The notes beneath the pieces were generated by a model, which made no database searches, was not told the origin of the DNA, and was given only the letters and a program-made list of their open reading frames with translations. DNA of 63,937 nt, the filler included, from Craspedostauros australis (taxonomy: Eukaryota): the NCBI GenBank assembly GCA_030167865.1. It is 5 parts of 5 records of this genome, joined end to end, with 100 filler letters (N's around TTAATTAATTAA, not from the genome) between each part and the next. Parts side by side here need not be neighbours in the genome. Positions count along the whole stretch, not along the records: positions 45,795 to 60,557 come from JALAGF010005646.1; positions 60,658 to 62,292 come from JALAGF010005652.1; positions 62,393 to 63,937 come from JALAGF010005661.1; 2 more parts are not named here. One strand, 5' to 3'. The translations under genes were made by a program, and so were the position numbers. Below, piece after piece: positions 9,030 through 63,937 of the stretch; positions within the stretch are counted from its first letter, which is position 1, and each line of letters opens with the position of its first letter.

Positions 9030-10338
9030 GATCTAAAAGATCCATTGTAGACGCCGATTTTATTTACGGTCTTATTCTATTTTATTTTCGACCCCTCGAT
9101 GTTGAAACTCATCTAGATACAGCTAGCGTGCAAAGGCCAGATTCGGTGTCTTGGTGCCTTCGCTGGTATCGCCAAAAGCAGGATTGTCGATGTCAACTTC
9201 TATGCTATTTTATGTTTTAGTCCCTCCATTGCGGCTCTGGCTCTTTGCTGCAATTGTGTCCTCACATTTTGTCCCACCATCTCAGGAGATTCCGAATGTC
9301 CTTCATCGTTTGCGTCTCACATGCAATTCGCTCCAATGGTTTGTTTCTTCTTGTTGCAGCACGAGTTCCTCCTCCTCTGTTGTCTGTTGCGGAAGCACGA
9401 TTCCTGCATCAGTGATGTCTGTGTTTGTTAGTGATTGGGTAATTGTTGTGTTCATTGTGTTGGTTGCATTCTTGCTGGAGTGTGCAATTCTGTTCATTGT
9501 TAGTTGGGATTTCAACGTCACACTTGTTGTCGAAGGTCGTGCCTTTGAGCACAGGAGGCAAGAGCTTGTCTGTTGCAGGTGGTGGAACGTGCTGTTTTCC
9601 ATCCATGTCCAATGGAGGAAACAGCTTCTCAGCAGATGATGGCACAAAGAGTTCCTTGCAATCAATTGGATCCGATGGAAAGGGGTGCACGGATGGAGAG
9701 GATGACAAACCTTGCTTCTGGAGAGGGAATGATTGGCAGTGTTGGAGGCAGCTTTCGTGGTTGAGACGAGCATGATGCTGCTTGATACTGAAGGGTGGAT
9801 GGAGAAGACTAGTATTGATCGAAGTGAACTGAACAGGAGGAGGGCAAGCAGGTGATGATACAAACACTGCATGAACATGCAACAAGCACAGAACACCACC
9901 GAAGAGAAGCAAAGGTTGATTTGGTGCCGAAATGTGGAGAGTCGCCACACGTGACCAGAGTGAAGATTTGAACGTGTATTATAACGTGTAATAACAGTTA
10001 TTCGCTAAGAAAATGTGTTCGAATAGATCAAACAATGACATCGTTGAATTACCAATTCCCCCTCACCGTCAAGTGTAGGATCGATCACTCCTGGGCATGA
10101 CAGGAGCACGTTGCTTTTGGGGCTACGGGGAATTTCGGCAGTCGTTCCACTATGTATAGTATCGTCATCGATTTGAGTACGGGCACACAATCATTACTCA
10201 ATCTGCTCTATTTTCTTGTCCAGACAGGGTCGGTTACTCGCTTGATTGCTCCCTTGGTTGTCTTGTCATCTGTTGACACGCAGATTAACTCGTGCGCATA
10301 CATACCACATGGGTGCAGTTTTGTCACTACCACCTCCC

Positions 10339-41949: not shown

Positions 41950-44275
41950 GAGGAAATTCATTAACCAGCCCTTTTGAAGTGCCGATTTGCATCAACCAGC
42001 CTGTTTTTACAACACTTAGTGGCACAAAACGTCCAATTGTCCATGCGACATCCCATGGACACAGGGATTTCGCATCGACTGCCATGGTTAGCGCATAAAT
42101 ATAGACTACCTGTACCACACAGGAAAACTTCAAGCCACATCATATTATACATGTTTATCATCATCTTCATATTGCCAGTATAGTCCAAATGAATGTACAT
42201 CATCCAATGAGGGGAATACGTGACTACTTTAGTTGTAGATATGTACATCATCCATCTGTTTGATCCAATTTCTTGCGTTGTGGATCGTATTCTGACGACA
42301 TCTTCATTGCAAAGGACAAAAATAGTACAGTTTAACAAATTCAGCGCATCGAAGGCATTCCAGTGAATATTCATTTAGCTTGTGAGTGGCTGGATCCATC
42401 TAGAAGGTGTTGCGGATTGTACGCGGCCAAATCACGGGATACCGCACGGTGGCTGTGTGCGGTGCGCAGGGTGTTGACCAAACCTTCATATGAAAGATTC
42501 AACAAATACCATTCCACCAATGTCATCGTAGCAACGGCGCTTCTATGGGTATGGGGGTGGCTTGGGAGGATCTGGGTCCTTCTGGAAGGAGTGCTGGCAC
42601 CCAAATATATGAATCTCGTGATACTGCGCGGTACGCATGGCGCTGTGCTGTACTCCGCATGTCTATGCATTCGGCAGGCTGTTTTGAGAGGTCCAACCAA
42701 CCTCACTACTCCAATCATACTCCAGAGAGTACAGACATGAATTTTGAAGTCTTTGATTCATCAGGAACGGATCCAATTCTATGGATGCAGATATCACACA
42801 GTAGTGATTGGTACGCATCGCACTGTACATTAATTTGGATGTTTGTACACAGGAACTGGCAATTGTATTCCAATCCAACGCTCCGACCACACCAATCATA
42901 CGCCAAAGAGTATGAAAATGAAGTTTGAAGTTCTTTATCCATTTGGAAGGGATCGCAATCTATAGATGCTGATATCACACTGTACTGAACCGTCCGCGTC
43001 ACGCTGTATAGCGTTCTGAGAATACGTGCATATAAAATTTTGGCCATATTGCAATCGAATGCTTGGATGGCTCCGACCACACTCCAATGGGTGCGGCCAT
43101 GAAGTTTGAAGTATTGGATCCATCTGGAAGCGATCCAAAGCTGGGGATAAGGATATCTGGTGATGCTGTTTGGGAGGGGGCTTTATGATGCGCATTGCGC
43201 TGTGCAGCCTTCTGCGGATATGTTCATCCAGCCGGCTGGCTTGAGAGATCCGACCAACTGCGCTGCGTCAAGTAGACTCCGAAGGCTGTGGCCATGGAGG
43301 TTGAAGTCCCATATTCATTTGGAAGGGGTCCATTTCTACGGATGCTGAAGTGGAGTGTCACTGAGCGGCGTCATGACATGTGGATCACCTGGGCGCATAC
43401 CGATANGTCTTCCTGGANGATTCACGGCTTCAAACNCCATGTCNGTGCTCTGTGGAATGCGTTCGGATTCACCAAAGTGTTGGATTTGAATATGACCNCC
43501 AATGTCNATGCACATATTCTCAGAACGCTGTACAGCGTGACGCGTACTGTTCAGAACCGCGTGATATCAGCATCAGTAGAATTGGATCCCTTCCTAACGG
43601 ATCAAAGACTTCAAACTTCATGTCCTTACTCTTTGGAGTGTTCTTGGAGTGATGTGGCTGATCGGATCTCTCAAAATGGCNNNNNNNNNNNNNNNNNNNN
43701 NNNNNNNNNNNNNNNNNNNNNNNNNNNNNNNNNNNNNNNNNNNNNNNNNNNNNNNNNNNNNNNNNNNNNNNNNNNNNNNNNNNNNNNNNNNNNNNNNNNN
43801 NNNNNNNNNNNNNNNNNCATCTCTTCCAGATGGATTTAGATACCCACAAGCTAATAATATACCCATTGGAATGCTCTCCATGCTCTTATCTTGTTAGAAT
43901 GAAATATGTTTGTCCTTTCCATTGAACGTGTCGTCAGAATACGCTCCACATCACAAGGAATTGGAGCAAACAGATGGATGATGTACACATCTACAACTAA
44001 GGTAGCCATTTATTCCTTTTACTAGATGCATTAAATTTTAGTGGACTATTTGATTGCATTCTATGGCAATTATGCTAAACATGTATGATGTGGCTTATAC
44101 TTTTCGTGTGTAGTGCAGGTAGTCTACATTTATACCTAAACTTGCGGGTCGATGTGAGATTTTGTGTCCACTGGACGTCGTATGGACATTTGGACGTTTT
44201 GAGTCGCTAAGAAACACAAAACAGGCTGGTTGATGCAAATCGGCACTTCAAAAGGGCTGGTTAATGAATTTCCTC
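41950..44275. mobile_element. Second full-length-like foldback element copy, inverted relative to 6756-9029, with an internal N gap
   Basis: TIR GAGGAAATTCATTAACCAGCCC at 41950 and its reverse complement ending 44275. The left arm resembles the right arm of copy 1 and vice versa. Flanks do not form a TSD. Confidence 0.92.
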
Positions 44276-44599
44276 ATTTGTCGTGCAGCTGAGGCAAAAA
44301 TAAGTCGCATCGTGCAAAAAAAAAGTCGCAACACTCGTTTCACACGACCCATCGTGACTGACACGGCGTGCAAACAGCGAAGGTCATTTTCGGAGAATTT
44401 GGACGGATCGGCGTTAAGTAGGAGAGCGAAATACGACTAGAAGGCATTGATAGAACGTGATAGAAGAGTTTGGAACGTCGCTTTCATCACGTTCCGTGAA
44501 GTGAGACAGAATTTGAGTTCGTGCAATATTTAGTCCGATTAGTCGAATAATCCGCTCTGGTCATGTTTTGCCGGGTGTCCCAGTTTATTTTGTGCTCCA

Positions 44600-45690: not shown

Positions 45691-45794
45691 AGGTNNNNNN
45701 NNNNNNNNNNNNNNNNNNNNNNNNNNNNNNNNNNNNNNTTAATTAATTAANNNNNNNNNNNNNNNNNNNNNNNNNNNNNNNNNNNNNNNNNNNN

Positions 45795-46321
45795 CAGTTG
45801 ATGTCCGCCTCACATGATTCGATGAGGTACTTGACACACTCCAGGTGGCCGTTCCAGCATGCCTGATGAAGGGGAGTGTCACCATTGTTGTTTTTGCAGT
45901 TGATGTCCGCCTCACATGATTCGATGAGGTACTTGACACACTCCAGGTGGCCGTTNNNNNNNNNNNNNNNNNNNNNNNNNNNNNNNNNNNNNNNNNNNNN
46001 NNNNNNNNNNNNNNNNNNNNNNNNNNNNNNNNNNNNNNNNNNNNNNNNNNNNNNNNNNNNNNNNNNNNNNNNNNNNNNNNNNNNNNNNNNNNNNNNTTTG
46101 CAGTTGATGTCCGCCTCACATGATTCGATGAGGTACTTGACACACTCCAGGTGGCCGTTGTAGCATGCCCAATGAAGGGGAGTGCAACCAAAGCTGTCTG
46201 TAACCTTGTTCACATTAACTCTTTCATTCTGCGTCTTGTTCTGCTTCTTCCACTCCTTCAACACTGACAAGTGACCTGCTATGGCAGCATCAATGAGTTG
46301 TTGGTCTGTGACATTCGGCAT
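45795..46321 (-). CDS. Ankyrin-repeat protein, 5' part only (paralog of 52719-55004)
   Basis: 'MPNVTDQQLIDAAIAGHL...GCTPLHWACYNGHLECVKYLIESCEADINCK'. Near-identical 102-bp repeats broken by gaps, truncated at the contig end. Confidence 0.88.
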
Positions 46322-46707
46322 TTTGAGAGGATGGTGGATGGTCGATGGTTGCTGGACGATAGACGTTGGACGTTGGACGATTTACGTTGGATTGGCTGTC
46401 GAGGATGTCTGTGGTCGGAGCTGCCTATGGAAGAGATATCGATGGTGGTGTATGCAACAGCTTGTATTAGTATGAGTATGAGTACCATACGCTGTGTGAT
46501 GAATAGTAGTATGAGTGGCAATTCGATGGCTGTTGTTCATGCGGTTGAGTATGGGGTCGAGTGATGTGTGTGCTGTTGTCTTGTTCGCATGGTCTCCTCC
46601 TTCTGTTTGCCTGTGTTTGTCTCCTTCTCTTGATCAAACGCGTCTGGTTCGCGCGGATTGGATCTTTCTGTTCCCATCCATCACGAAAATGCGTGCGACC
46701 AACAACA

Positions 46708-52718: not shown

Positions 52719-55004
52719 TCATTCCTCTTGTTCAACAGCGCCGTCCGTCTCGATTGCTTTGGACGATTTGGTACTCATAGAGCGCACGAAGTGCACCAAT
52801 GTCGCCCGATTCATGTATGAGTCCACTTGTGTTGTACTCTCGTCCTCATCGACAGCCTTGTACAGCTCTATCATGGACATGTGGCTGTACTTGTCATCAA
52901 TGCCATCACTCTCCATTCTTCCACTGCAAAACACCTGGGTCTCCGTCATCAGTTGCTGGTGTAGAATCAGCTTGCTGAAATCTGGATGAGTGAACATATC
53001 TTTCTCACTTTCAGCTGCCACTCTCATTGCTGCATCCTTCAATATTGTGCAGTTTTGTTGATCGGCAAATATCAACGCATCTATCACGCTGTCCTCTGTG
53101 AGATACTTGTGGGCCAACTCTTCTTCAAGAACAAGCTTGAGTTGCCAGAGGCCGAACTTGTTGGCCACAAGGATCAACTGTTGCAGATCGTCCTGTCCAG
53201 TGAGGGCTGGAGTTGGCTGGTTTGCGTCATCATCGTCACTGTCGTCATGAGTGTTGTTGTTGAAGGACATCTCACCTGTGTAGATGCATTGGAGGACGTG
53301 TCGGACGTATTTTGGCTGAAGGTTGGGAAGAGGGATGGTTGTTTGGATGGGTTCAGCTCCATCGTGAGCGCCATCGTGAGCGCATTGATTTTGGATTCCA
53401 GAGTTGATCAGTGTCTCAATGGTTGGGACGGTCATCATGAGGACTTCGGAGTTTGCCTTGATTGCTTGTTGTTGGTCGCCCTGTCCACACAAGAAGATGG
53501 TGTCTGCCCTGTTCTCGGTTTGGAAGGATCTGAGCCGGTCTTCTCCAATGCTGATGTTGGTCCTCTTGTAGGTACTGTGTTTGTGTTTATTCTCTTGCTT
53601 CTTCCACTTCGACTGCTGTCCCAACTGTCGCTGGAATTCTTCATTATCTTGTTCCTTCTGCTTCTTCTCGTCCTCCTCTCGTTCCAACTGTTGTCGCAAT
53701 TGTTCATTCTCTTGCTCGTTCCACTTCAACTGCTGTCCCAACTGTTCTTGTGGCTGTTCATTCTCTTGTTCCTTCTGTTTCTTCTCTTCCTCCTCCCGTT
53801 CCAGCTGTTGGTGCAATTGTTCAATCTCTTGCTCCTTCCGCTTCAACTGCTGTCCCAACTGTTGCTGCAGTTGTTCATTCTCTTGCTCCTTCTGTTTCTT
53901 CTCGGCCTCCTCCCGTTCCAGCTGTTGTTGCAATTGTTCAATCTCTTGCTCTTTCCGCTTCACCTGCTGTTGCAATTGTTCATTCTCTTGCTCCTTCCGC
54001 TTCAACTGCTGCCCCAACTGTTGTTGCAGCTGTTCATTCTCTGGCTCGTTCTGTTGTAAGCGTTGGTGCAGTTGTGGGTTGAGGTGCCCGGGACGCTTCA
54101 TGATCAATCTCTTGATTTCGGTCTGATGTTCTGCATCGATCAAATCGAGCGGTGTTTGGTTGTAGTTGTTTTGGATGTCGATATCGGCATTGGCTGATAC
54201 AATGAGGTACTTCATGCATTCAGAACGGCTGTTGGAGCATGCCCAATGAAGGGGAGTGGCACCACCTTCTTCTTTGCAGTTGGCATCAGCCTCGCATGAT
54301 TCGATGAGGTACTTCACACACTGCAGGTGGCCGTTGGAGCATGCCACATGAATTGGAGTGACACCATTGTTGTTTGTGCAGTTGGCGTTGGCCCCACATG
54401 AGTCGATGAGGTGCTTGACACAGTTCAGGTGGCCGTTAATGCATGCCCAATGAAGGGGAGCCCAGCCATCTTCTTCTTTGCAGTTGGCGTCGGTCCCACA
54501 TGAGTTGATGAGGTACTTGACACATTCCAGCTTGCCGTTCATGCACGCCTGATGAAGGGGAGTGGCACCACCATCTTCTTTGCAGTTGGCGTCGGCCCCA
54601 CATGATTTGATGAGGTACTTGACACACTTCAGGTGGCCGTTAATACATGCCCAATGAAGGGGAGCCCAACCATTGGCAGCTTTGCAGTTGGCATCGACCC
54701 CACATGATTTGATGAGGTACTTGACACACTTCAGGCGGCCATTGTAACATGCCTTATGGAGGGGAGTGGAACCATTGTTGTCTCTGCAGTTTACGTCGGC
54801 CCTGCATGATCCAATGAGGTACTTGACACACTCCAGGTGACCATGTTTGCATGCCCAATGAAGGGGAGTGACACCATTCTCGTGCTGAACATTAATATCA
54901 ACTTCTTTCTTGTTCTTCTTGTTCTGCTTCTTCCATTTCTTCAACACCAACAAAGCGCCTGCCTTGGCAGCATCAAGGAGTTGTTCGTTCGTAACATTCG
55001 TCAT
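52719..55004 (-). CDS. Ankyrin-repeat, Q/E coiled-coil, BTB/POZ (SPOP-like) protein
   Basis: Seven 34-aa repeats 'G.(T/A)PLH.AC.NG.L.CVKYLI.SC..D.NC' plus caps, then a repeated Q/E/K linker. BTB 'ADTIFLC...IKANSEVL...VLQCIYTGE...LILVANKFGLWQLKL..E' and BACK-like 'LIFADQQNCTILKDAAM'. Confidence 0.92.
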   Translation of the reverse strand: MTNVTNEQLLDAAKAGALLVLKKWKKQNKKNKKEVDINVQHENGVTPLHWACKHGHLECVKYLIGSCRADVNCRDNNGSTPLHKACYNGRLKCVKYLIKSCGVDANCKAANGWAPLHWACINGHLKCVKYLIKSCGADANCKEDGGATPLHQACMNGKLECVKYLINSCGTDANCKEEDGWAPLHWACINGHLNCVKHLIDSCGANANCTNNNGVTPIHVACSNGHLQCVKYLIESCEADANCKEEGGATPLHWACSNSRSECMKYLIVSANADIDIQNNYNQTPLDLIDAEHQTEIKRLIMKRPGHLNPQLHQRLQQNEPENEQLQQQLGQQLKRKEQENEQLQQQVKRKEQEIEQLQQQLEREEAEKKQKEQENEQLQQQLGQQLKRKEQEIEQLHQQLEREEEEKKQKEQENEQPQEQLGQQLKWNEQENEQLRQQLEREEDEKKQKEQDNEEFQRQLGQQSKWKKQENKHKHSTYKRTNISIGEDRLRSFQTENRADTIFLCGQGDQQQAIKANSEVLMMTVPTIETLINSGIQNQCAHDGAHDGAEPIQTTIPLPNLQPKYVRHVLQCIYTGEMSFNNNTHDDSDDDDANQPTPALTGQDDLQQLILVANKFGLWQLKLVLEEELAHKYLTEDSVIDALIFADQQNCTILKDAAMRVAAESEKDMFTHPDFSKLILHQQLMTETQVFCSGRMESDGIDDKYSHMSMIELYKAVDEDESTTQVDSYMNRATLVHFVRSMSTKSSKAIETDGAVEQEE
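53580..54060 (-). repeat. Coding tandem repeats forming the coiled-coil linker
   Basis: Alternating 'QENEQLQQQLGQQLKRKE' and 'QEIEQLQQQLEREEEEKKQKE' units, DNA period about 117 bp. Confidence 0.85.
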
Positions 55005-55310: not shown

Positions 55311-55575
55311 TCCCTCTCTGGGACACCCGGCAAGATGGGTCGAATTAGTCCATCATGGCAATAACTGACCCAGCCAATCAAAACTTGTTATCTTGGAAAT
55401 GACATTTTTTTCTGCGATAAGAAAGTTCTCGACTCCAACTTTCGTTCGTTGGAACTCTTCGTGGGTCATATCTCACAGTTTCATTTATGGGGGAATCATG
55501 GAGAAACTCCGAAAATGACTCTACAATAATGTGCCTTGATTTAATCCCGAGCAGTCGTGCGAAAACTTTATCTAT

Positions 55576-55755
55576 GATTTATTTATCCGTCATTCGATTT
55601 ATTTATCCGTCATTCGAAAATAATATCCGTCATTCGATTTATTTATCCGTAATTCGAAAATAATATCCGTCATTCGATTTATTTATCCGTCATTCAAAAA
55701 TAATATCCGTCACTCGATTTATTTATCCGTCATTAGATTTATTTAGCTATCATTC
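55576..55755. repeat. 20-bp minisatellite, 9 units of two alternating variants
   Basis: A = GATTTATTTATCCGTCATTC, B = GAAAATAATATCCGTCATTC, order A A B A B A B A A'. Confidence 0.95.
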
Positions 55756-56913
55756 CTTTGTCTTCACGGGACACGCCACTTGGCTCAACTGACTAGATCG
55801 ACTAAACAAGGTTCTCGCCACATCGGGATCGACAAAGCGGGAACAGACCAACAGGCCACCAATGCAAAGGCGGGCGCGATGAGAGCGACACATGGCGGTC
55901 GCGCGTTGGTTTGGGACGGCCAAACCATGCGAAACGACTTCACAACATCAAGTATCAACATAGTGTAGCGAACGCGATACAAACGCAATACAAACCGATG
56001 CACGCATGTGTTGCTTCCCATGTCGCTTTAGACCAGAGTGATGGCATGCTCGTTTCGTCTGTTCTGCACTTGGCTTTGCGGCATCAGTGAAGGTGTCTCC
56101 CTGTTCGAAGAGTAGTCGCATTGTGTTTCTCTGTGCATTGCTCACAAATCTTCCCGTCCACAAGAAGCCATCGCCATGAGATTCCCCCCGCCCCATCCTT
56201 CCTCCTTCCAACAAAGCAAGGCTGCTGGCACGAGTGGCAGCAATGCCATTCCAATGGCTCCATCTCCCTCTTCCTCTTCCATTCTGCCTTGCAACAACTT
56301 CCTCGGTCACACCCCAGCAACCGCAACTGTCAGCCATCGCGCATCGCTCACCCCCACCCAGCACAACAGCAACCTCAACTTTGGCAATCGTCCGGCTCCT
56401 ATCAACACGCATGCCAAGTTCAACAACGCGATGAAGGCGATTAGCCCTGCTTTCTTTGGTCTCCCTCATGGCCACTTTTTCGACCTGAAAAGGGGACACT
56501 TCAAGAGCGAAGAGGACAACAACGCCGAGCTCTCATTTCGTGCTGCTATTGCAGCAATTGACAAGCTCGTCAACATGAAATCGCTCGTTGCGTTCTATCT
56601 TGATGGCTGCCTCTCAGGCATCTGTTTCATGTGCAGCCACATCTCGTGGTTGTTGGCATACACTGCATTCCTGTTGTTCGTGCACCTCATCGTGGTCGCA
56701 AAAACTCTCGTGTTCGCAGTGTCCTCGGTGTGGGGGATGGCCAACACAGCGAAACTCACAACGACGAACAACCACAACGCGAGCAATTGACGCAACCACC
56801 ACAACAACGAGCGAAAATTCCATTCGTGGATACATCGAAGAATCACACAAGTCTAATAACACTAGGAAGAGTCTATTATTGAAGAACTACTATTGCCTAC
56901 TAGTCAGTGTTTA

Positions 56914-57443
56914 TCATTTGTTGGTCATTGATTGTGCTTGCTTGCGCTTGATTGCGAGATGATTCTTGAACTTCTGCAGCTTGACTTGCTGGTAGATGTG
57001 CTGCTTGAACTGTTTTGCACCGAAAGCAGCATACTCTGGTCGACTTGCCTGGAATTCAGATGGTGTCATGTGGAGGTGCTTGTTCATTTTGACGTCAAAG
57101 GAAAGCAGATCTTTCGCAGGGGACAAGTGCATCACTGGTCTGCCTTGGTTGTTGCGCCGTTCCTCGGGGTGAATGTTACGGTCGTGGTCCAATGCGCGCT
57201 CTTCGCGCGCAGAGCGTTCTCGCTGTTTTTTTTTAGTCGTGCGTGGAACGTCTTGAAGTATTTCTCGAAGACGGCCTGCGTCATCCCGTCCACTTTGAAT
57301 TGCGGAAACATGCTGTAGTACTCCCATGCTGTAGCAGGTGCCAAATCCTCGGCATGGAATACACCTCCAACGTCAAAGTCATCTTTCATCATTGCGCTGG
57401 CTGCGCTGTTGCGCCACTTGAACTTTGGTGCATTTGCCGCCAT
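56914..57443 (-). CDS. Small unknown protein with an internally duplicated helical domain, split by a -1 frameshift at an A9 run (57226-57234)
   Basis: ORF 57443-57132 ('KWRNSAASAMMKDDF...P...FPQF...FEKYF') and ORF 57327-56914 ('HLSPAKDLLSFDV...P...SRPEYAAF...FKQHI') overlap at the homopolymer and resemble each other. Confidence 0.65.
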
Positions 57444-58129
57444 TGTTTCAATTGTGTGCCAACGATGATGATGGCAGCTTCTCTACTACTCAGCGTACAC
57501 ATCAAGAACGGCACGAGAAATGAACACACTCATACACCCCGCCTTATATCTACTAGTACTGTCATTGCTTTCGCACGCTGGGCCGGATGCCGTTGTTGTT
57601 GTTCGTTGAAATATCACCTACAGACCTCTTCTGCTACACAAATCAGCATAGAACGGCCGGCTGGCGATGTTGTGACCGTTTTGTCGGAGTCGTGTTTGAA
57701 TTTCGTGCCGGACAGGCTACAAACTAGAGGCTCACATGGTGCAACGTAGCGTGCACAATGTTCAAAAATGCAAGAGCTCCTCGCAAGCATCGACACACAC
57801 AAACAACTGCAATATGTGCAACAAAGCAAGTCATTATCTACATACTATGCATCTGATTGTAGCACCATTGCTCTCTCTAGACTTTGTGGCTGCAGACGAT
57901 TTGTATGTTGGCGCGCATCCATTCTGGAGACCGCGCTGATCATTCGGACGCCGCCAAACATCTGAAAGAGAAACAGACCAACCTGCTCAATGGATGAAGA
58001 CAATGTTGTGTTGTGTGTACCAATATAGAGTAGTGCTGCTATGGCATCACATCAGGCAAACACAGCGCCATCGCAACACTTGTGTTCACGCGCTTCGAAC
58101 AACCACCATCGGCTCACAATCTACGAGCA

Positions 58130-59404
58130 ATGCAAATGTACACCGTCGACAATCTCCCAAGCACGAGTAAGTCTCTGTCTATGCAGATTGCGTCTGCTGT
58201 CGAGCGTTCAGGCAAGACGCGAAACCAGATCAGATTCGCAACAGACATCTGTGACAAGCAACCAGCTCTGTTCGGTGAACCTGGTGATCAGCTTCGTGCC
58301 TTCAGCAGGCGGGTGTTCGATAACCTGAAGAGGCGGAGTACCAAGAGCTACTTTTCATTTCTCCGAAACAACGACATCACACCAGGCTGAGGATCTCTTG
58401 CTGAATTGGCGCATCATTGGAACGCCCATCCTTGTGTTGGCGATTTCTGTGGTCGTGTGAGTGATCTCTCACTACAAACGCCCTTTGTCCGTTTTGCACC
58501 AACTCGTGTGTCGCCACCTCACAAGCCGAATGCCAACCCTGCCTATCCACAGCCAACAGCACCAACAACAAACATGAAGTTCAACTCTGACGGCCTCGCC
58601 AAGCCACTTGGTATCTTCGGGAGTCCACAAACCAAGCCTCCGAAGGCAGAGATCGAACTCCCAGATCGCGTTGGGTCTGCATCGAACGCATCAAACGCAT
58701 CCACCGAGTCGTCCATGAGCGACGAAGACAACAACTCTTCCACCAGTCGCCCAAGCGATGACGCCTTCCACGCCTTGTTCGCGCGGAAGGAAAATGGAAC
58801 AGCGACGAACCCGTACACTGTCGCGATCAACCACGAGTCTCCAGAACGCAATCGCGAATTCCTTGTTGACTTCATCAACGACATCGGCGTCACAAATGGC
58901 AATTTCGCAGGCTTTCATGTCCGTGTTCCTTGCGCCCTGCAGGATGTCAACTTGTGGAGTGCTGAGATCCCAACTCACATTCCTGGCATTGCGCATCGTT
59001 CTCTGATGATCCGCGGCCCAAGCGTGAATGCCTGGATGTGTCGCGACGAGGCATTTTACTGCCACGACGAAGCCGCAGGAACAGCACAGACCGCCCTCTC
59101 TGCCACTGTCGCGAAAGTCCAAGCCTCTCCGGTTCGCAAGTTCTCTTTCTGGTTGCTGATCTTTCCGTCTGACATCAGCCTTGATCTCGCTTTGACCACC
59201 AAACATGGTGACAACGCGATTGAGACCAACTGCTCTGTGCGTGACATGGTGGTCACCGAAGGTGATCAAGCGTTCACGATCCATGGTGCGGTTGCCTACT
59301 GGAAGCTCGTGTTGGCAGGTGGTCGTGTGACGCACCAACCAGAGAAGAAGAACGCTGGCTTCTACTTGAGCAGATTGACCGCGAAAGGTGACGAAACGGC
59401 TTAA
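58130..59404 (+). pseudogene. Unknown ~424-codon protein with one in-frame TGA at 58388-58390
   Basis: ORFs 58082-58390 and 58406-59404 share one frame with no other stop. N-terminal helical 'ICDKQPALFGEPGDQLR', an S/P linker, then a beta-rich domain 'GTATNPYTVAINHESPERNREF...GFHVRV...WSAEIP...LMIRGPS'. Confidence 0.65.
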
Positions 59405-59762
59405 GCTGGCGAACTCACGACACGGACAGAACAATCACGGCAACTAGCAGCATAACACAAACACTATTTAGGTACCTTGTACAACGCACACCAACACGTC
59501 TTGCGCCTTCTCGTTTCCCTCTTCGTTATTGTCGCAGGCGCGCAATGATAAAACCTGTCAACCTCCACGAAAACGAACAAACGGTATTGGGCTCTACTTA
59601 ACATGTACATGATTGAGACGTGTGGTGTTTTGCAGGATAAGTAACTTGACTAGAGCATGTGGCTTGTGATCGCCTTATGTTGGGCTACAGTCGTGTCTCA
59701 TTGCAGATACTGTGACACTAAATTGATGGGTCTGCATGTGTGTCTGTTGGTGCGATTGGAGA

Positions 59763-60185
59763 CTACTTCATCGCCCCGTCGTGCTTGATCGGCAAATCGC
59801 TCTTGTCGACAGTGCGATACTCCGCGTCATCACCAAGAGCATGGAGTTTTTTGCCTTCTGTCGTCAACTTATCGAAGAACACAGCATTGATGTGGGGAAT
59901 GTCATGATCAGAAAACACGTTGCACTCGCAAAGCGCACGCGCAAGTTTGTCCATCATTTTATCAATGTCTGGATGCTGTTGCAACACAGCTTCGGCGAGG
60001 TTCGCGGGTGCCTTGCGGCGCCTCACGTTGTCCTTGTTCAGCTTGGTTTCCTTCAGCGATCCATCATCCATCTTCACGATCACAGGACGCTGGCACTTTG
60101 TTGGCTTCTTGTCCACATTCACCCAGCCAATGTGACCCTTGTACTTTCCTCCAGTGATGGCGATGAGCTTTCCCTTCGTGCCCAT
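59763..60185 (-). CDS. Small unknown protein with a KOW/SH3-like N-terminus
   Basis: 140-aa ATG-started ORF. 'GKLIAITGGKYKGHIGWV' resembles the KOW motif and is followed by a helical C-terminal half. Confidence 0.7.
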   Translation of the reverse strand: MGTKGKLIAITGGKYKGHIGWVNVDKKPTKCQRPVIVKMDDGSLKETKLNKDNVRRRKAPANLAEAVLQQHPDIDKMMDKLARALCECNVFSDHDIPHINAVFFDKLTTEGKKLHALGDDAEYRTVDKSDLPIKHDGAMK

Positions 60186-63100
60186 GGTGATGCTGCAATT
60201 GATGCTGCTGTTGTTGTTGTGGTGTTGGTGTTGGTGTTGTGATCTGATGAGTGATGTTGTGGGCTTGTCGTTGGATGTGTTGGTTGATCAATCAGCGAAC
60301 ATCGGAAACGCCAGTACCAGCGCTCGCTGTGTTCTCCTTTCTGCCGTGGTGCTTCACGACAACGCAACACGAAACTGTTTCGTCATTTTCGCGTGTCTGG
60401 GTCCAGTCGCCAAATCACGACCATCATTCACATCGACAAACAAAGCACTCTCATTTTGCGTGAAAATACTTCTTGGTTCTGAGCACATGCCATCACTATT
60501 CGCTAACTGGGCCTCGATCCATGACTGTTGTGTCGCCAAGTCGTTGTGCCGTGTTTGNNNNNNNNNNNNNNNNNNNNNNNNNNNNNNNNNNNNNNNNNNN
60601 NTTAATTAATTAANNNNNNNNNNNNNNNNNNNNNNNNNNNNNNNNNNNNNNNNNNNNTGATGATACAGCCCACTTATGCATATGACCAGAATGAAGAACA
60701 CACGAACAACACCTGAGCCCATTGACATCGTGGTCATGGTTCCCAAGGAAAGAGATCCTACTTTCAGTGAAGTCTGATCTTGCTTCAGCAACTTACTAAC
60801 CTGTGCTCCTGCATTGCTTGCCAACATTCCAGCCCCACTCATGCAAACATTGCATAGAAGTGGTCATGGTCATTTTGTTGTCTGAGCAGCTCTGAGCTTG
60901 GTGAACAAGAGGAGACATTGAGTGCATTCTTGTGCGGTACATCGAGTAAAACCAGCAAAACTCGAATGTGATGAAGATGCAAACATTCTTCATCTCATAA
61001 AAACACAAAGCTTACAACTTAATACTAAAACTCAATCAACAACCACATCAGAGCACAAAACAAACAACCATAGCCACAACCTCCATCAGTACAGCTTGGA
61101 CATCAAACGGTGAAAACCGGTCACAAGCACTGAGGGGAGCGTATCAACCATTTCGTCTGTCTTCGTCACGTCAAAAACAACAACAAAACAAAAATCATAC
61201 AAGTGGCAAAGACATCGATTCCGCCCATCACTGACCACTGCGCCACGGAGCGAGCAGCACTGTCGGACCCAACAAGAATACTACGTTTCAAAACGGCTAA
61301 CTTCAACTATACGATACCATCCTGTGTGTCCCTACGACAGGTTTTTATCATCAATGCGTTCCGTCCCTCCCTTCTGTTCGTGGATGTCTTCCCGCAATTC
61401 TGTATCGTGACGTCACATCAGGCGTTNNNNNNNNNNNNNNNNNNNNNNNNNNNNNNNNNNNNNNNNNNNNNNNNNNNNNNNNNNNNNNNNNNNNNNNNNN
61501 NNNNNNNNNNNNNNNNNNNNNNNNNNNNNNNNNNNNNNNNNNNNNNNNNNNATTTGTTGTGTTCAACTTTTGCAAACTCGCTTGTTGGCAGGCGTACTTC
61601 CGTATGATGACAGACGCTGATGGAGGCACACCGGCTGCTACAGAGATCATCACATCTCCGATACTCTAAATCCGCCAATAGTACCAAATCATACACACCA
61701 CACTCACACAATATTGACAGGTGNNNNNNNNNNNNNNNNNNNNNNNNNNNNNNNNNNNNNNNNNNNNNNNNNNCGTTCCGTCCCTCCCTTCTGTTCGTGG
61801 ATGTCTTCCCGCAATTCTGTATCGTGACGTCACATCAGGCGTTCGAAAGCGTTCATATTCATGTATTTTTCTTGTTTTGGATGATGTAGGCGGCAGAGGT
61901 ATGCCAAAATGCAGATTCTGACAGTGCGAATTGGTCGAAGTTAGCGTATTTTGCGTATTTTTAGCTGAATTTGTTGTGTTCAACTTTTGCAAACTCGCTT
62001 GTTGGCAGGCGTACTTCCGTATGATGACAGACGCTGATGGAGGCACACCGGCTGCNACAGAGATCATCACATCTNCGATACTCTAAATCCGCCAATAGTA
62101 CCAAATCATACACACCACACTCACACAATATTGACAGGTGATGGCCTTTTCATGCTTCACACGAGTCTTTCCTTTCTTCCTCTCTTCCTACGTGCTCCGG
62201 GATGTCATATTCTGTTACATTCACAGTATCTTCCCTCAACCTCTTTGCCCCATACTCTCTGTTCTTGCTTCCTTCTTCCTTTCATCATGGCTNNNNNNNN
62301 NNNNNNNNNNNNNNNNNNNNNNNNNNNNNNNNNNNNTTAATTAATTAANNNNNNNNNNNNNNNNNNNNNNNNNNNNNNNNNNNNNNNNNNNNACTCCTCG
62401 TCCTCACAATCGATCGGCGGTCTGTCGTCAATGCGCATCGGGTGTGGTGACTTCGATCACCGTTTGCTCGGTGATGAAAGAGAATGGATCGGTCTGCTGA
62501 CGGTCGACGCATGTATCGATGCAGGATGATGGCTGGACTGCTCATCTGTGAGGTTGGTAAGGGTCGTCTGCAATGTTGCGACGGTGGCATCATCGATGAG
62601 AGATGAGTTGCGCATGGATCTGTTCGTCTGCTCTTCTTGTCTTGCGCGTAGGAATCGAAGCTGTGTGTGCGCGAGTATTGGAATGTGTACACTTCATTGT
62701 TGTCATTCNNNNNNNNNNNNNNNNNNNNNNNNNNNNNNNNNNNNNNNNNNNNNNNNNNNNNNNNNNNNNNNNNNNNNNNNNNACTCTCCAAGTATCGCAT
62801 GCGTTCTTTGGCTGCTGCCAGTCTGTCTGCAATGCGGCCGTCTTCTTGGGATCGATGGGCGGTTGCTGTGTGGTTGCAAGCTGATGGCCGTGGCGGAGGT
62901 TGATGACTCCTGCAGTTGATCTTGTCGTAGCTGCTCGTGTGGATGCTTGCGTGGTTGGCAGCTGGAGGTGTTACCAACGAGCCTGCATCCTCCATCGAAG
63001 CCGTAGGCGGAGTCCGCAGGTGAAGCCTTTCCCAGAGTGGACGTTGGGTGTCATGTGTGGCGATCCATGATAGCTTCGGCTGCTGCTGCTGCTGCTGCTG

Positions 63101-63937
63101 CTGCTGATCGTCGTGGAGGTGTCGTCGCCCTTGTTGGTTGGATGGGCCATGGCGGTGTGAGCATAGTGCAATGGGCGCGAGACGAAGTGTTTGATGGAGG
63201 AGGTGCCTTCATGGAGATCGACCATGGCCTCATCATCGGGTGCATCGATGTTCACGATGCTACTCGCATGCCGCTCGCACGTTGGTTGTGTTGGATGTGC
63301 AAGGAAATGGTTTTCTCGCTCGTGGTAATTTGTGGTTGTTGGTCGGCATCCGCCAAATTCCAACCAAGTTGCCAACGCAACAAGATCCACAACCAGAACA
63401 AACCACTGAATTTTGGTGGGGCTCGCCTTTGAACGAATCAATCGCCAAAGAAATCACTTTTTCTGTGGTGTGGCAACACAGACACGTTCGTCCCCGCAGT
63501 TGGTTTGTCGGACCGAACAAAAGCACAGTGGCACTGGAGGTGTTTGCGTGGCTCATAATTTCATAATATCGGCTTCTAAGCCAATCAGATCACTCCATTA
63601 TGAACACAAGATACCTTTCGAACAGGGGGTGACCANNNNNNNNNNNNNNNNNNNNNNNNNNNNNNNNNNNNNNNNNNNNNNNNNNNNNNNNNNNNNNNNN
63701 NNNNNNNNNNNNNNNNNNNNNNNNNNNNNNNNNNNNNNNNNNNNNTCTCATCTCGTGCCTTGCTCTCAAATCGCTCCTCCAACGGTAATTTCGAGTTGAT
63801 GTGATTTCTTCCCTCACAAGCGTTGGCATCAGTTTTTATCGACCTCTGTCGTGCAAGTATCGTCACGCGACCCTCCACTTCCTCCCTTGCATGCACCATC
63901 AATCTGTGTCGATTGTCCATCTCCTTTCATGCACGTC

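Follow-up and report, generated by a model that had tools for sequence, protein, structure and literature searches.

A probable PHIS-superfamily DNA transposon with an enlarged gene set, represented by a defective copy in the diatom Craspedostauros australis

What kind of element carries the small genes that stand beside a tandem array near a contig end in the diatom Craspedostauros australis? The locus lies in the window, the whole stretch of DNA analysed here (63,937 nucleotides, filler included, from assembly GCA_030167865.1), whose parts are artificially concatenated, so that their order across the gaps is no evidence of adjacency. In an original prediction, made without database searches, positions 55576-60557 were read as one end of a large DNA transposon or endogenous-virus-like element with its transposase beyond the gap. 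With a probability of roughly 85%, the locus is a PHIS-superfamily DNA transposon of the cut-and-paste type, present as a defective copy and belonging to a diatom lineage whose gene set is enlarged. Terminal inverted repeats (TIRs), insertion into CNG with duplication, a D-D-E (DDE) transposase, non-autonomous derivatives and linked accessory open reading frames (ORFs) under purifying selection were found, and this anatomy implies cut-and-paste transposition into CNG. The class of element is itself ordinary.

Copies were sought in an assembly of 65.9 Mb in 6,734 contigs (C numbers denote its contigs). DNA likeness among copies begins at 55314-55321, and the left end of the element was placed at 55321. 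The left TIR (13 bp, GGACACCCGGCAA, 55321-55333, plus strand) was defined by the count of exact matches, the start of between-copy similarity and the right end of L077, to which it is identical at 13/13 positions; the 13-mer has 145 exact matches in the assembly, and its reversed control none. The trinucleotide at the left junction is CTG (55318-55320), assigned from 105 flanks and an empty-site comparison as a 3-bp target-site duplication (TSD), or as a 1-bp TSD with the G counted as TIR. These distinct outer flanks were taken from the 100 of the 145 TIR places that were listed and from earlier loci, with a one-base variant allowed. C stands at -3 in 105/105 and G at -1 in 104/105; the trinucleotides are CAG (46), CTG (39), CCG (10), CGG (9) and CAA (1), that is, CWG in 85/105, CSG in 19/105 and CAA in 1/105. 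The sole deviating flank, CAA (L173/L281), belongs to a copy whose other end is absent from its contig. Both ends were present at nine loci, spaced 677 to 7,550 bp, with the same trinucleotide at both ends in seven (one of them CGG/CGG) and differing ones in two. For an insertion inside a transposase gene, the empty site contains a single CTG and the filled site one at each junction. With CNG as the target, the data fit equally well a 3-bp TSD with a GG-starting TIR and a 1-bp TSD with a GGG-starting TIR; the TIR begins with GGA under a CWG TSD and with GGG solely under the 1-bp reading.

Short non-autonomous derivatives carry the same ends as the full element. The latter totals about 7.0 kb by summed lengths with both ends defined, no one contig spanning the whole, and 'large' was an overstatement. 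The subterminal array (55576-55745, plus strand) was confirmed at its predicted position as 8.5 copies of a 20-bp unit with a 40-bp higher order. The cluster had been taken to begin there; the array is a subterminal repeat, as proposed, but the element starts 255 bp further out. At the right end a similar array lies 251 bp inward, in direct orientation to the first, and other families carry different arrays at comparable positions.

Other members of the TIR family were also seen. A second terminus lies at 44275-44580 (minus strand) with a CTG flank, 97% like C913 and 94% like C4329; with some 0.3 kb matching, it is probably a short derivative or remnant. The 6.1-kb copy L123:251-6365 retains both ends, flanked alike by CAG; nearly all its genes are gone, and retroelement-like sequence lies inside. 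At L055:1-4345, a long interspersed nuclear element (LINE)-like sequence lies beside another member of the family.

The part from JALAGF010005646.1 ends at 60557, where N runs with a short linker follow, and none of the element's five proteins was matched in the window parts beyond that position. The spacer between ORF D and the transposase (60186-60557) is truncated by the contig end and continues on C2535/C2536, then on C2534/C4949. Positions 60103-60557 are 100% identical to C2535 and C2536 over 455 bp; the transposase starts 181 bp past the contig end on these contigs. Their overlap with C2534 spans 425 bp at 100% identity, and C2534 supplies the remainder of the transposase gene along with another 20-bp array and the right TIR. 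The transposase has 302 aa, with the DDE triad D141, D218 and E255 conserved in the alignment, and that of a sister family matched Pfam DDE_Tnp_4 (PF13359, E 2.8e-12), over the cut-off. The prediction of one transposon end with its transposase past the gap was thus borne out by TIR, target duplication, empty site and this gene. Three relatives of the transposase among the 120 listed are named (Fragilaria crotonensis, Mayamaea pseudoterrestris and Nitzschia inconspicua); all are diatoms, which fits the likeness to uncharacterised diatom proteins put forward in the original prediction. Matches to IS5-family models were weak (NCBIfam, E 0.00076, far below the cut-off), and plasmid genes labelled 'transposase family' were 26-32% identical. 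Scanning found no relatives of the transposase in viral contigs, and 0 loci in prokaryote genome contigs.

The right end of the window copy itself is suggestively represented by C4949. Its transposase DNA is identical to that of C2534 at 389/394 positions, its array is 93% like the window array, and CTG stands at its junction. The alignment of the left flank with a paralogous ankyrin-gene promoter stops at 46635, and the outer flank of C4949 resumes it at 46644-46679, although this flank match covers just 33 bp and ranks second of the 105 flanks tested. Separately, window positions 9037-10033 share 81% identity over 1 kb with the C4949 flank (L282:1467-2462), as another dispersed repeat.

The four ORFs at 56176-60185 were found where they had been predicted, compact, intronless and in alternating orientation. 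Such a layout would also suit part of an endogenous virus or of a Polinton-like element; the original prediction had named an endogenous-virus-like element as its second option. This option found no support: the element has two defined ends about 7.0 kb apart, a 13-bp TIR and a CNG target, Pfam scans of its five ORFs gave no capsid, polymerase, ATPase or integrase family, and a viral origin is very improbable.

ORF A (56176-56790, plus strand, 204 aa) has a low-complexity, variable N-terminus and a C-terminal half that is conserved and hydrophobic (hydropathy reaching 2.26 over 19 residues). At first listed as merely possible, it is a real gene of the sub-lineage, kept in diverged copies at a ratio of nonsynonymous to synonymous substitution rates (dN/dS) of 0.18-0.26. 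ORF B (56914-57443, minus strand, about 175 aa in intact copies) has two predicted three-helix bundles, and ORF C (58130-59404, plus strand, 424 codons) a helical, helix-turn-helix-like N-terminal domain, a disordered linker and a predicted C-terminal beta-sandwich. ORF D (59763-60185, minus strand, 140 aa), also a sub-lineage gene, stands head to head with the transposase and has a KOW-like N-terminus and a conserved C-terminal part. Its KOW likeness was seen again (KOW5_SPT5, E 0.0054) but falls below the Pfam cut-off, and KOW/uL24/SPT5 entries appeared in a PDB sequence search at E 0.29-0.85 at best. ORFs A, B and C have no Pfam family; PDB sequence searches with queries A1-A4 and A9 returned nothing under E 0.2, and Foldseek searches of the pdb and viral sets nothing at E<=0.001. 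Lesions expected in two of the genes were located in B, frameshifted by a 2-base insertion in a T-run near 57225-57234, and in C, interrupted by an in-frame TGA at 58388-58390 where 3/3 close copies checked have a sense codon. Since both are broken, the window copy would need B and C in trans and would be mobile only if they came from other copies.

On C6074, C4759 and C3738, where the proteins are 47-77% identical, the genes likewise follow the order A(+), B(-), C(+), D(-), transposase(+); C2533 has the same order from B to the transposase, and C5161 has B-C-D-transposase at about 30-48% protein identity. Among 14 D-bearing contigs, the transposase is head to head with D in 10, and the remaining 4 end at most 0.5 kb from the D start. 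In 9/12 pairs covering all five ORFs dN/dS was 0.07-0.27, three pairs being saturated and several dS values exceeding 1. Co-occurrence with a DDE transposase, the check first proposed, held in conserved order across these families; single-copy, unlinked host genes without shared boundaries were not what was found, as the genes are linked to the transposase and the copies share ends.

For distant families, contigs were chosen from match lists and do not form a random sample. B, C and a transposase occur together on eight (C863, C6630, C3155, C6537, C177, C3456, C2320 and C584), B or C singly with a transposase on two, and neither on others (e.g. L127, L137, L138 and L300); gene order and orientation vary. 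Among 71 related-transposase loci in JGI/ENA metagenomes, B was present in 16, C in 13, either in 25 and both in 4, whereas A and D were found in 0/71 and are also absent from the distant families. With at least 1.5 kb of flank on one side, 12/19 metagenome loci are positive for B or C; among all 25 positives, L257 and L258 have a C fragment that abuts a truncated transposase. As B and C recur in distant families and metagenomes and A and D do not, B and C are taken as the core and A and D as additions, probably acquired later by one sub-lineage, in which they might tune expression or localisation.

The restriction of A and D to that sub-lineage, the variable gene order and the transposases beside which neither B nor C was detected could also be explained if A to D were captured host genes, passively carried as Pack-type cargo by a one-gene transposon. 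Linkage of B and C nevertheless persists across transposases merely about 38-44% identical, selection acts on the ORFs (dN/dS 0.07-0.27), the same profiles gave 0 matches in 142,420 bases of control host DNA, and A, B and C lack a Pfam family. Captured cargo is improbable as a whole and, for B and C, already largely refuted.

Several relatives differ in layout. In the family of L128:1-5899 and L129 (C863 and C6630), B is accompanied by a C gene of two exons and by a transposase of 322 aa that looks intact; at the ends, long, repeat-rich inverted repeats of 270-450 bp take the place of short TIRs. The metagenome locus L213:336-7728 (7.4 kb, apparently complete) encodes a transposase, C and B, together with two more uncharacterised ORFs of 711 and 340 aa that lack a Pfam match; its outer trinucleotides, CAG and CTG, differ. 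L050 (C2023), where a tandem pair of diverged C genes separates B from D, is perhaps a two-family chimera. The distantly related 6-kb PHIS element at L135:1422-7440 (C6649) is complete; it ends in a TIR of its own, its transposase is intron-split and its flanks are compatible with a CTCG (or TC) duplication. Within this element (L135/L134), an ORF of 535 aa contains a segment weakly like HSP20 (E 0.007-0.009 in a set of 326 frames, E 0.2 in one of 9,762), and another ORF shows a weaker likeness to B (E 0.28); each is a hint only.

What might the core proteins do? Harbinger transposition employs a transposase and a separately encoded DNA-binding protein, according to the accessible portions of three sources (PMC4482050; PMC5339849; bioRxiv 10.64898/2026.05.26.728016). 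By analogy, the transposase here would be a catalytic subunit requiring an element-encoded DNA-binding partner. ORF B is the candidate, with odds slightly better than even, its two bundles binding the 20-bp subterminal arrays as putative sites. The internal duplication first noticed in B was recovered by comparing first-half and second-half profiles (probability 92%, E 6.6e-7); its predicted model resembles homeodomain/FF/SANT bundles, and no Pfam Myb/SANT match or usable Atlas match was obtained.

Both domains of the ORF C model have a predicted local distance difference test score of about 90-97, and its top 30 structural matches are all HSP20-like, so that the C-terminal domain is predicted to adopt an HSP20/alpha-crystallin/CS-like beta-sandwich fold. 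Unlike the small heat-shock/alpha-crystallin/CS structures 3w1z, 1gme, 4rzk and 2xcm, it is about twice as long, has a helical insertion and is fused to a helical N-terminal domain; identity is 5-18%, and there is no profile similarity. A scan of 81 C relatives gave no Pfam match, to HSP20 (PF00011) or any other family, and profile comparison with host HSP20 domains gave a probability of 0.16%, within the shuffled range. A single-sequence search with the window's ORF C fragment gave no match; a profile search returned a large orphan family of 703 clusters at 50% identity. In Atlas, C fell near unnamed clusters (0.90-0.92) with few shared features and low recognition, which were not used, and a metagenome scan with a C sub-alignment gave 106 pattern matches, 0 confirmed. 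The modelled helical domain may tether C to the element while the alpha-crystallin-like domain oligomerises. C would then serve as a scaffold or chaperone uniting ends and transposase, a role to which we give a little less than an even chance; some role other than this or anti-silencing is possible but not favoured. Complex prediction for the first 192 transposase residues with the C-terminal domain of C scored 0.00, run without alignments and with chains from different families, and speaks neither for nor against an interaction.

The same transposon might instead use C against silencing: C would bind its own element, and its alpha-crystallin-like domain would recruit or block host chromatin machinery, like plant alpha-crystallin domain (ACD) proteins in the IDM and MBD5/6 complexes, while the KOW motif of D would aid transcription. 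Consistent with this, C joins a helical domain through a disordered linker to an HSP20-like fold, an arrangement conserved in 64/79 library relatives of at least 340 aa. In the available text of the plant studies, HDP1/HDP2, which derive from Harbinger, co-purify in Arabidopsis with IDM2/IDM3, which are ACD proteins, although without direct binding (PMC5339849), and ACD15/ACD21 have a role in silencing of transposable elements (PMC10651127); transposon-borne anti-silencing genes are known from Vandal and HarbingerS, as the accessible part of a further source has it (PMC12730594). Comparison of C with HSP20 domains of the host, and not with plant ACD proteins, revealed no sequence link. The anti-silencing role is the chief alternative to the scaffold, and we regard it as unlikely. 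Tentative, and rather doubtful, is the broader proposal of a diatom-wide, undescribed PHIS lineage with an obligatory three-protein core, in which a DDE nuclease, a tandem helix-bundle array reader and a DNA-tethered alpha-crystallin-fold protein would build the transpososome or shield the element from silencing.

Assignment of the transposon to PHIS rests on a DDE_Tnp_4/IS5-type transposase, G-starting short TIRs and a short duplication at a preferred CNG site. Like canonical PIF/Harbinger elements, it has a catalytic subunit of the DDE_Tnp_4 kind, TIRs that start with G, a separate helical-bundle ORF and numerous short derivatives that are non-autonomous. It differs in the target, with CNG instead of the canonical TWA (0/105 flanks), and in having two core and two optional accessory ORFs instead of one. 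With ISL2EU and the bacterial ISL2 group of IS5 it shares GG-starting TIRs and the weak likeness to IS5-family models, and the transposase has a YSHK motif that may be ISL2-like; the AT TSD of ISL2EU occurs in 0/105 flanks, and Pfam scanning of ORFs A to D, intact copies included, gave no match to its YqaJ exonuclease. The ANT TSD of Pangu (Harbinger2) likewise occurs in 0/105.

NuwaI, as the accessible part of its description has it (PMC4482050), is confined to animals, averages 4.5 kb, has two ORFs (transposase and Myb/SANT) and has TIRs of 12-61 bp that usually start with GGG outside a CWG TSD. A CWG TSD (85/105 flanks), a short TIR (13 bp) and a DDE_Tnp_4 transposase without other domains are shared with it. 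Here, in contrast, five ORFs are under purifying selection, at least three genes occur in distant families, the length is about 7 kb, no Pfam Myb/SANT match was found, 19/105 sites are CSG and the relatives are diatoms. PHISTA and HarbingerS, in the excerpts available (PMC12730594), are likewise PHIS transposons with extra proteins (three-gene), PHISTA also lacking a Myb/SANT domain; their extras are TET/JBP or SET enzymes, of which no domain was found here, and the PHISTA TSD is TA. Brown-algal Harbingers are two-gene elements with ANT or TNA targets (PMC12477816), and diatom Harbinger-like elements are mentioned without detail (PMC2806351), in the text of these sources that was available. 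A literature search returned no description of this lineage or of a transposon-encoded alpha-crystallin protein; Repbase and Repbase Reports, which lay outside that search, may hold relatives (e.g. T. pseudonana Harbinger entries, noted in the available part of PMC12730594).

PHIS transposons have been described as one- or two-gene elements, rarely three-gene ones; in this lineage two unnamed protein families form a stable core, and as many as four helper genes are present. The orphan family of 703 clusters, now labelled hypothetical, would be explained as transposon genes. If C is indeed a chaperone-fold helper, cut-and-paste transposition or transposon counter-silencing would gain a new component. 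No earlier transposon-encoded chaperone of the small-heat-shock type came up in the literature search, and C would be a mobile counterpart of the plant Harbinger-plus-ACD chromatin pairing. A native diatom transposon that targets CNG, with relatives that look intact, could also be useful for mutagenesis.

Outside the element, the host-side flank holds an ankyrin-repeat/coiled-coil/BTB gene (52719-55004, minus strand), and the insertion point lies in its promoter, about 0.3 kb upstream of the gene start. A paralogous ankyrin-repeat gene lies at 45743-46381 (minus strand), and L142 is a separate insertion into CTG of a look-alike promoter, about 25 bp further on. An identical short AT-only linker stands between 44-base N runs at 60602-60613 and 62337-62348. 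At 63600-63635 a contig terminates in a G/C-run motif, which could be the end of another repeat.

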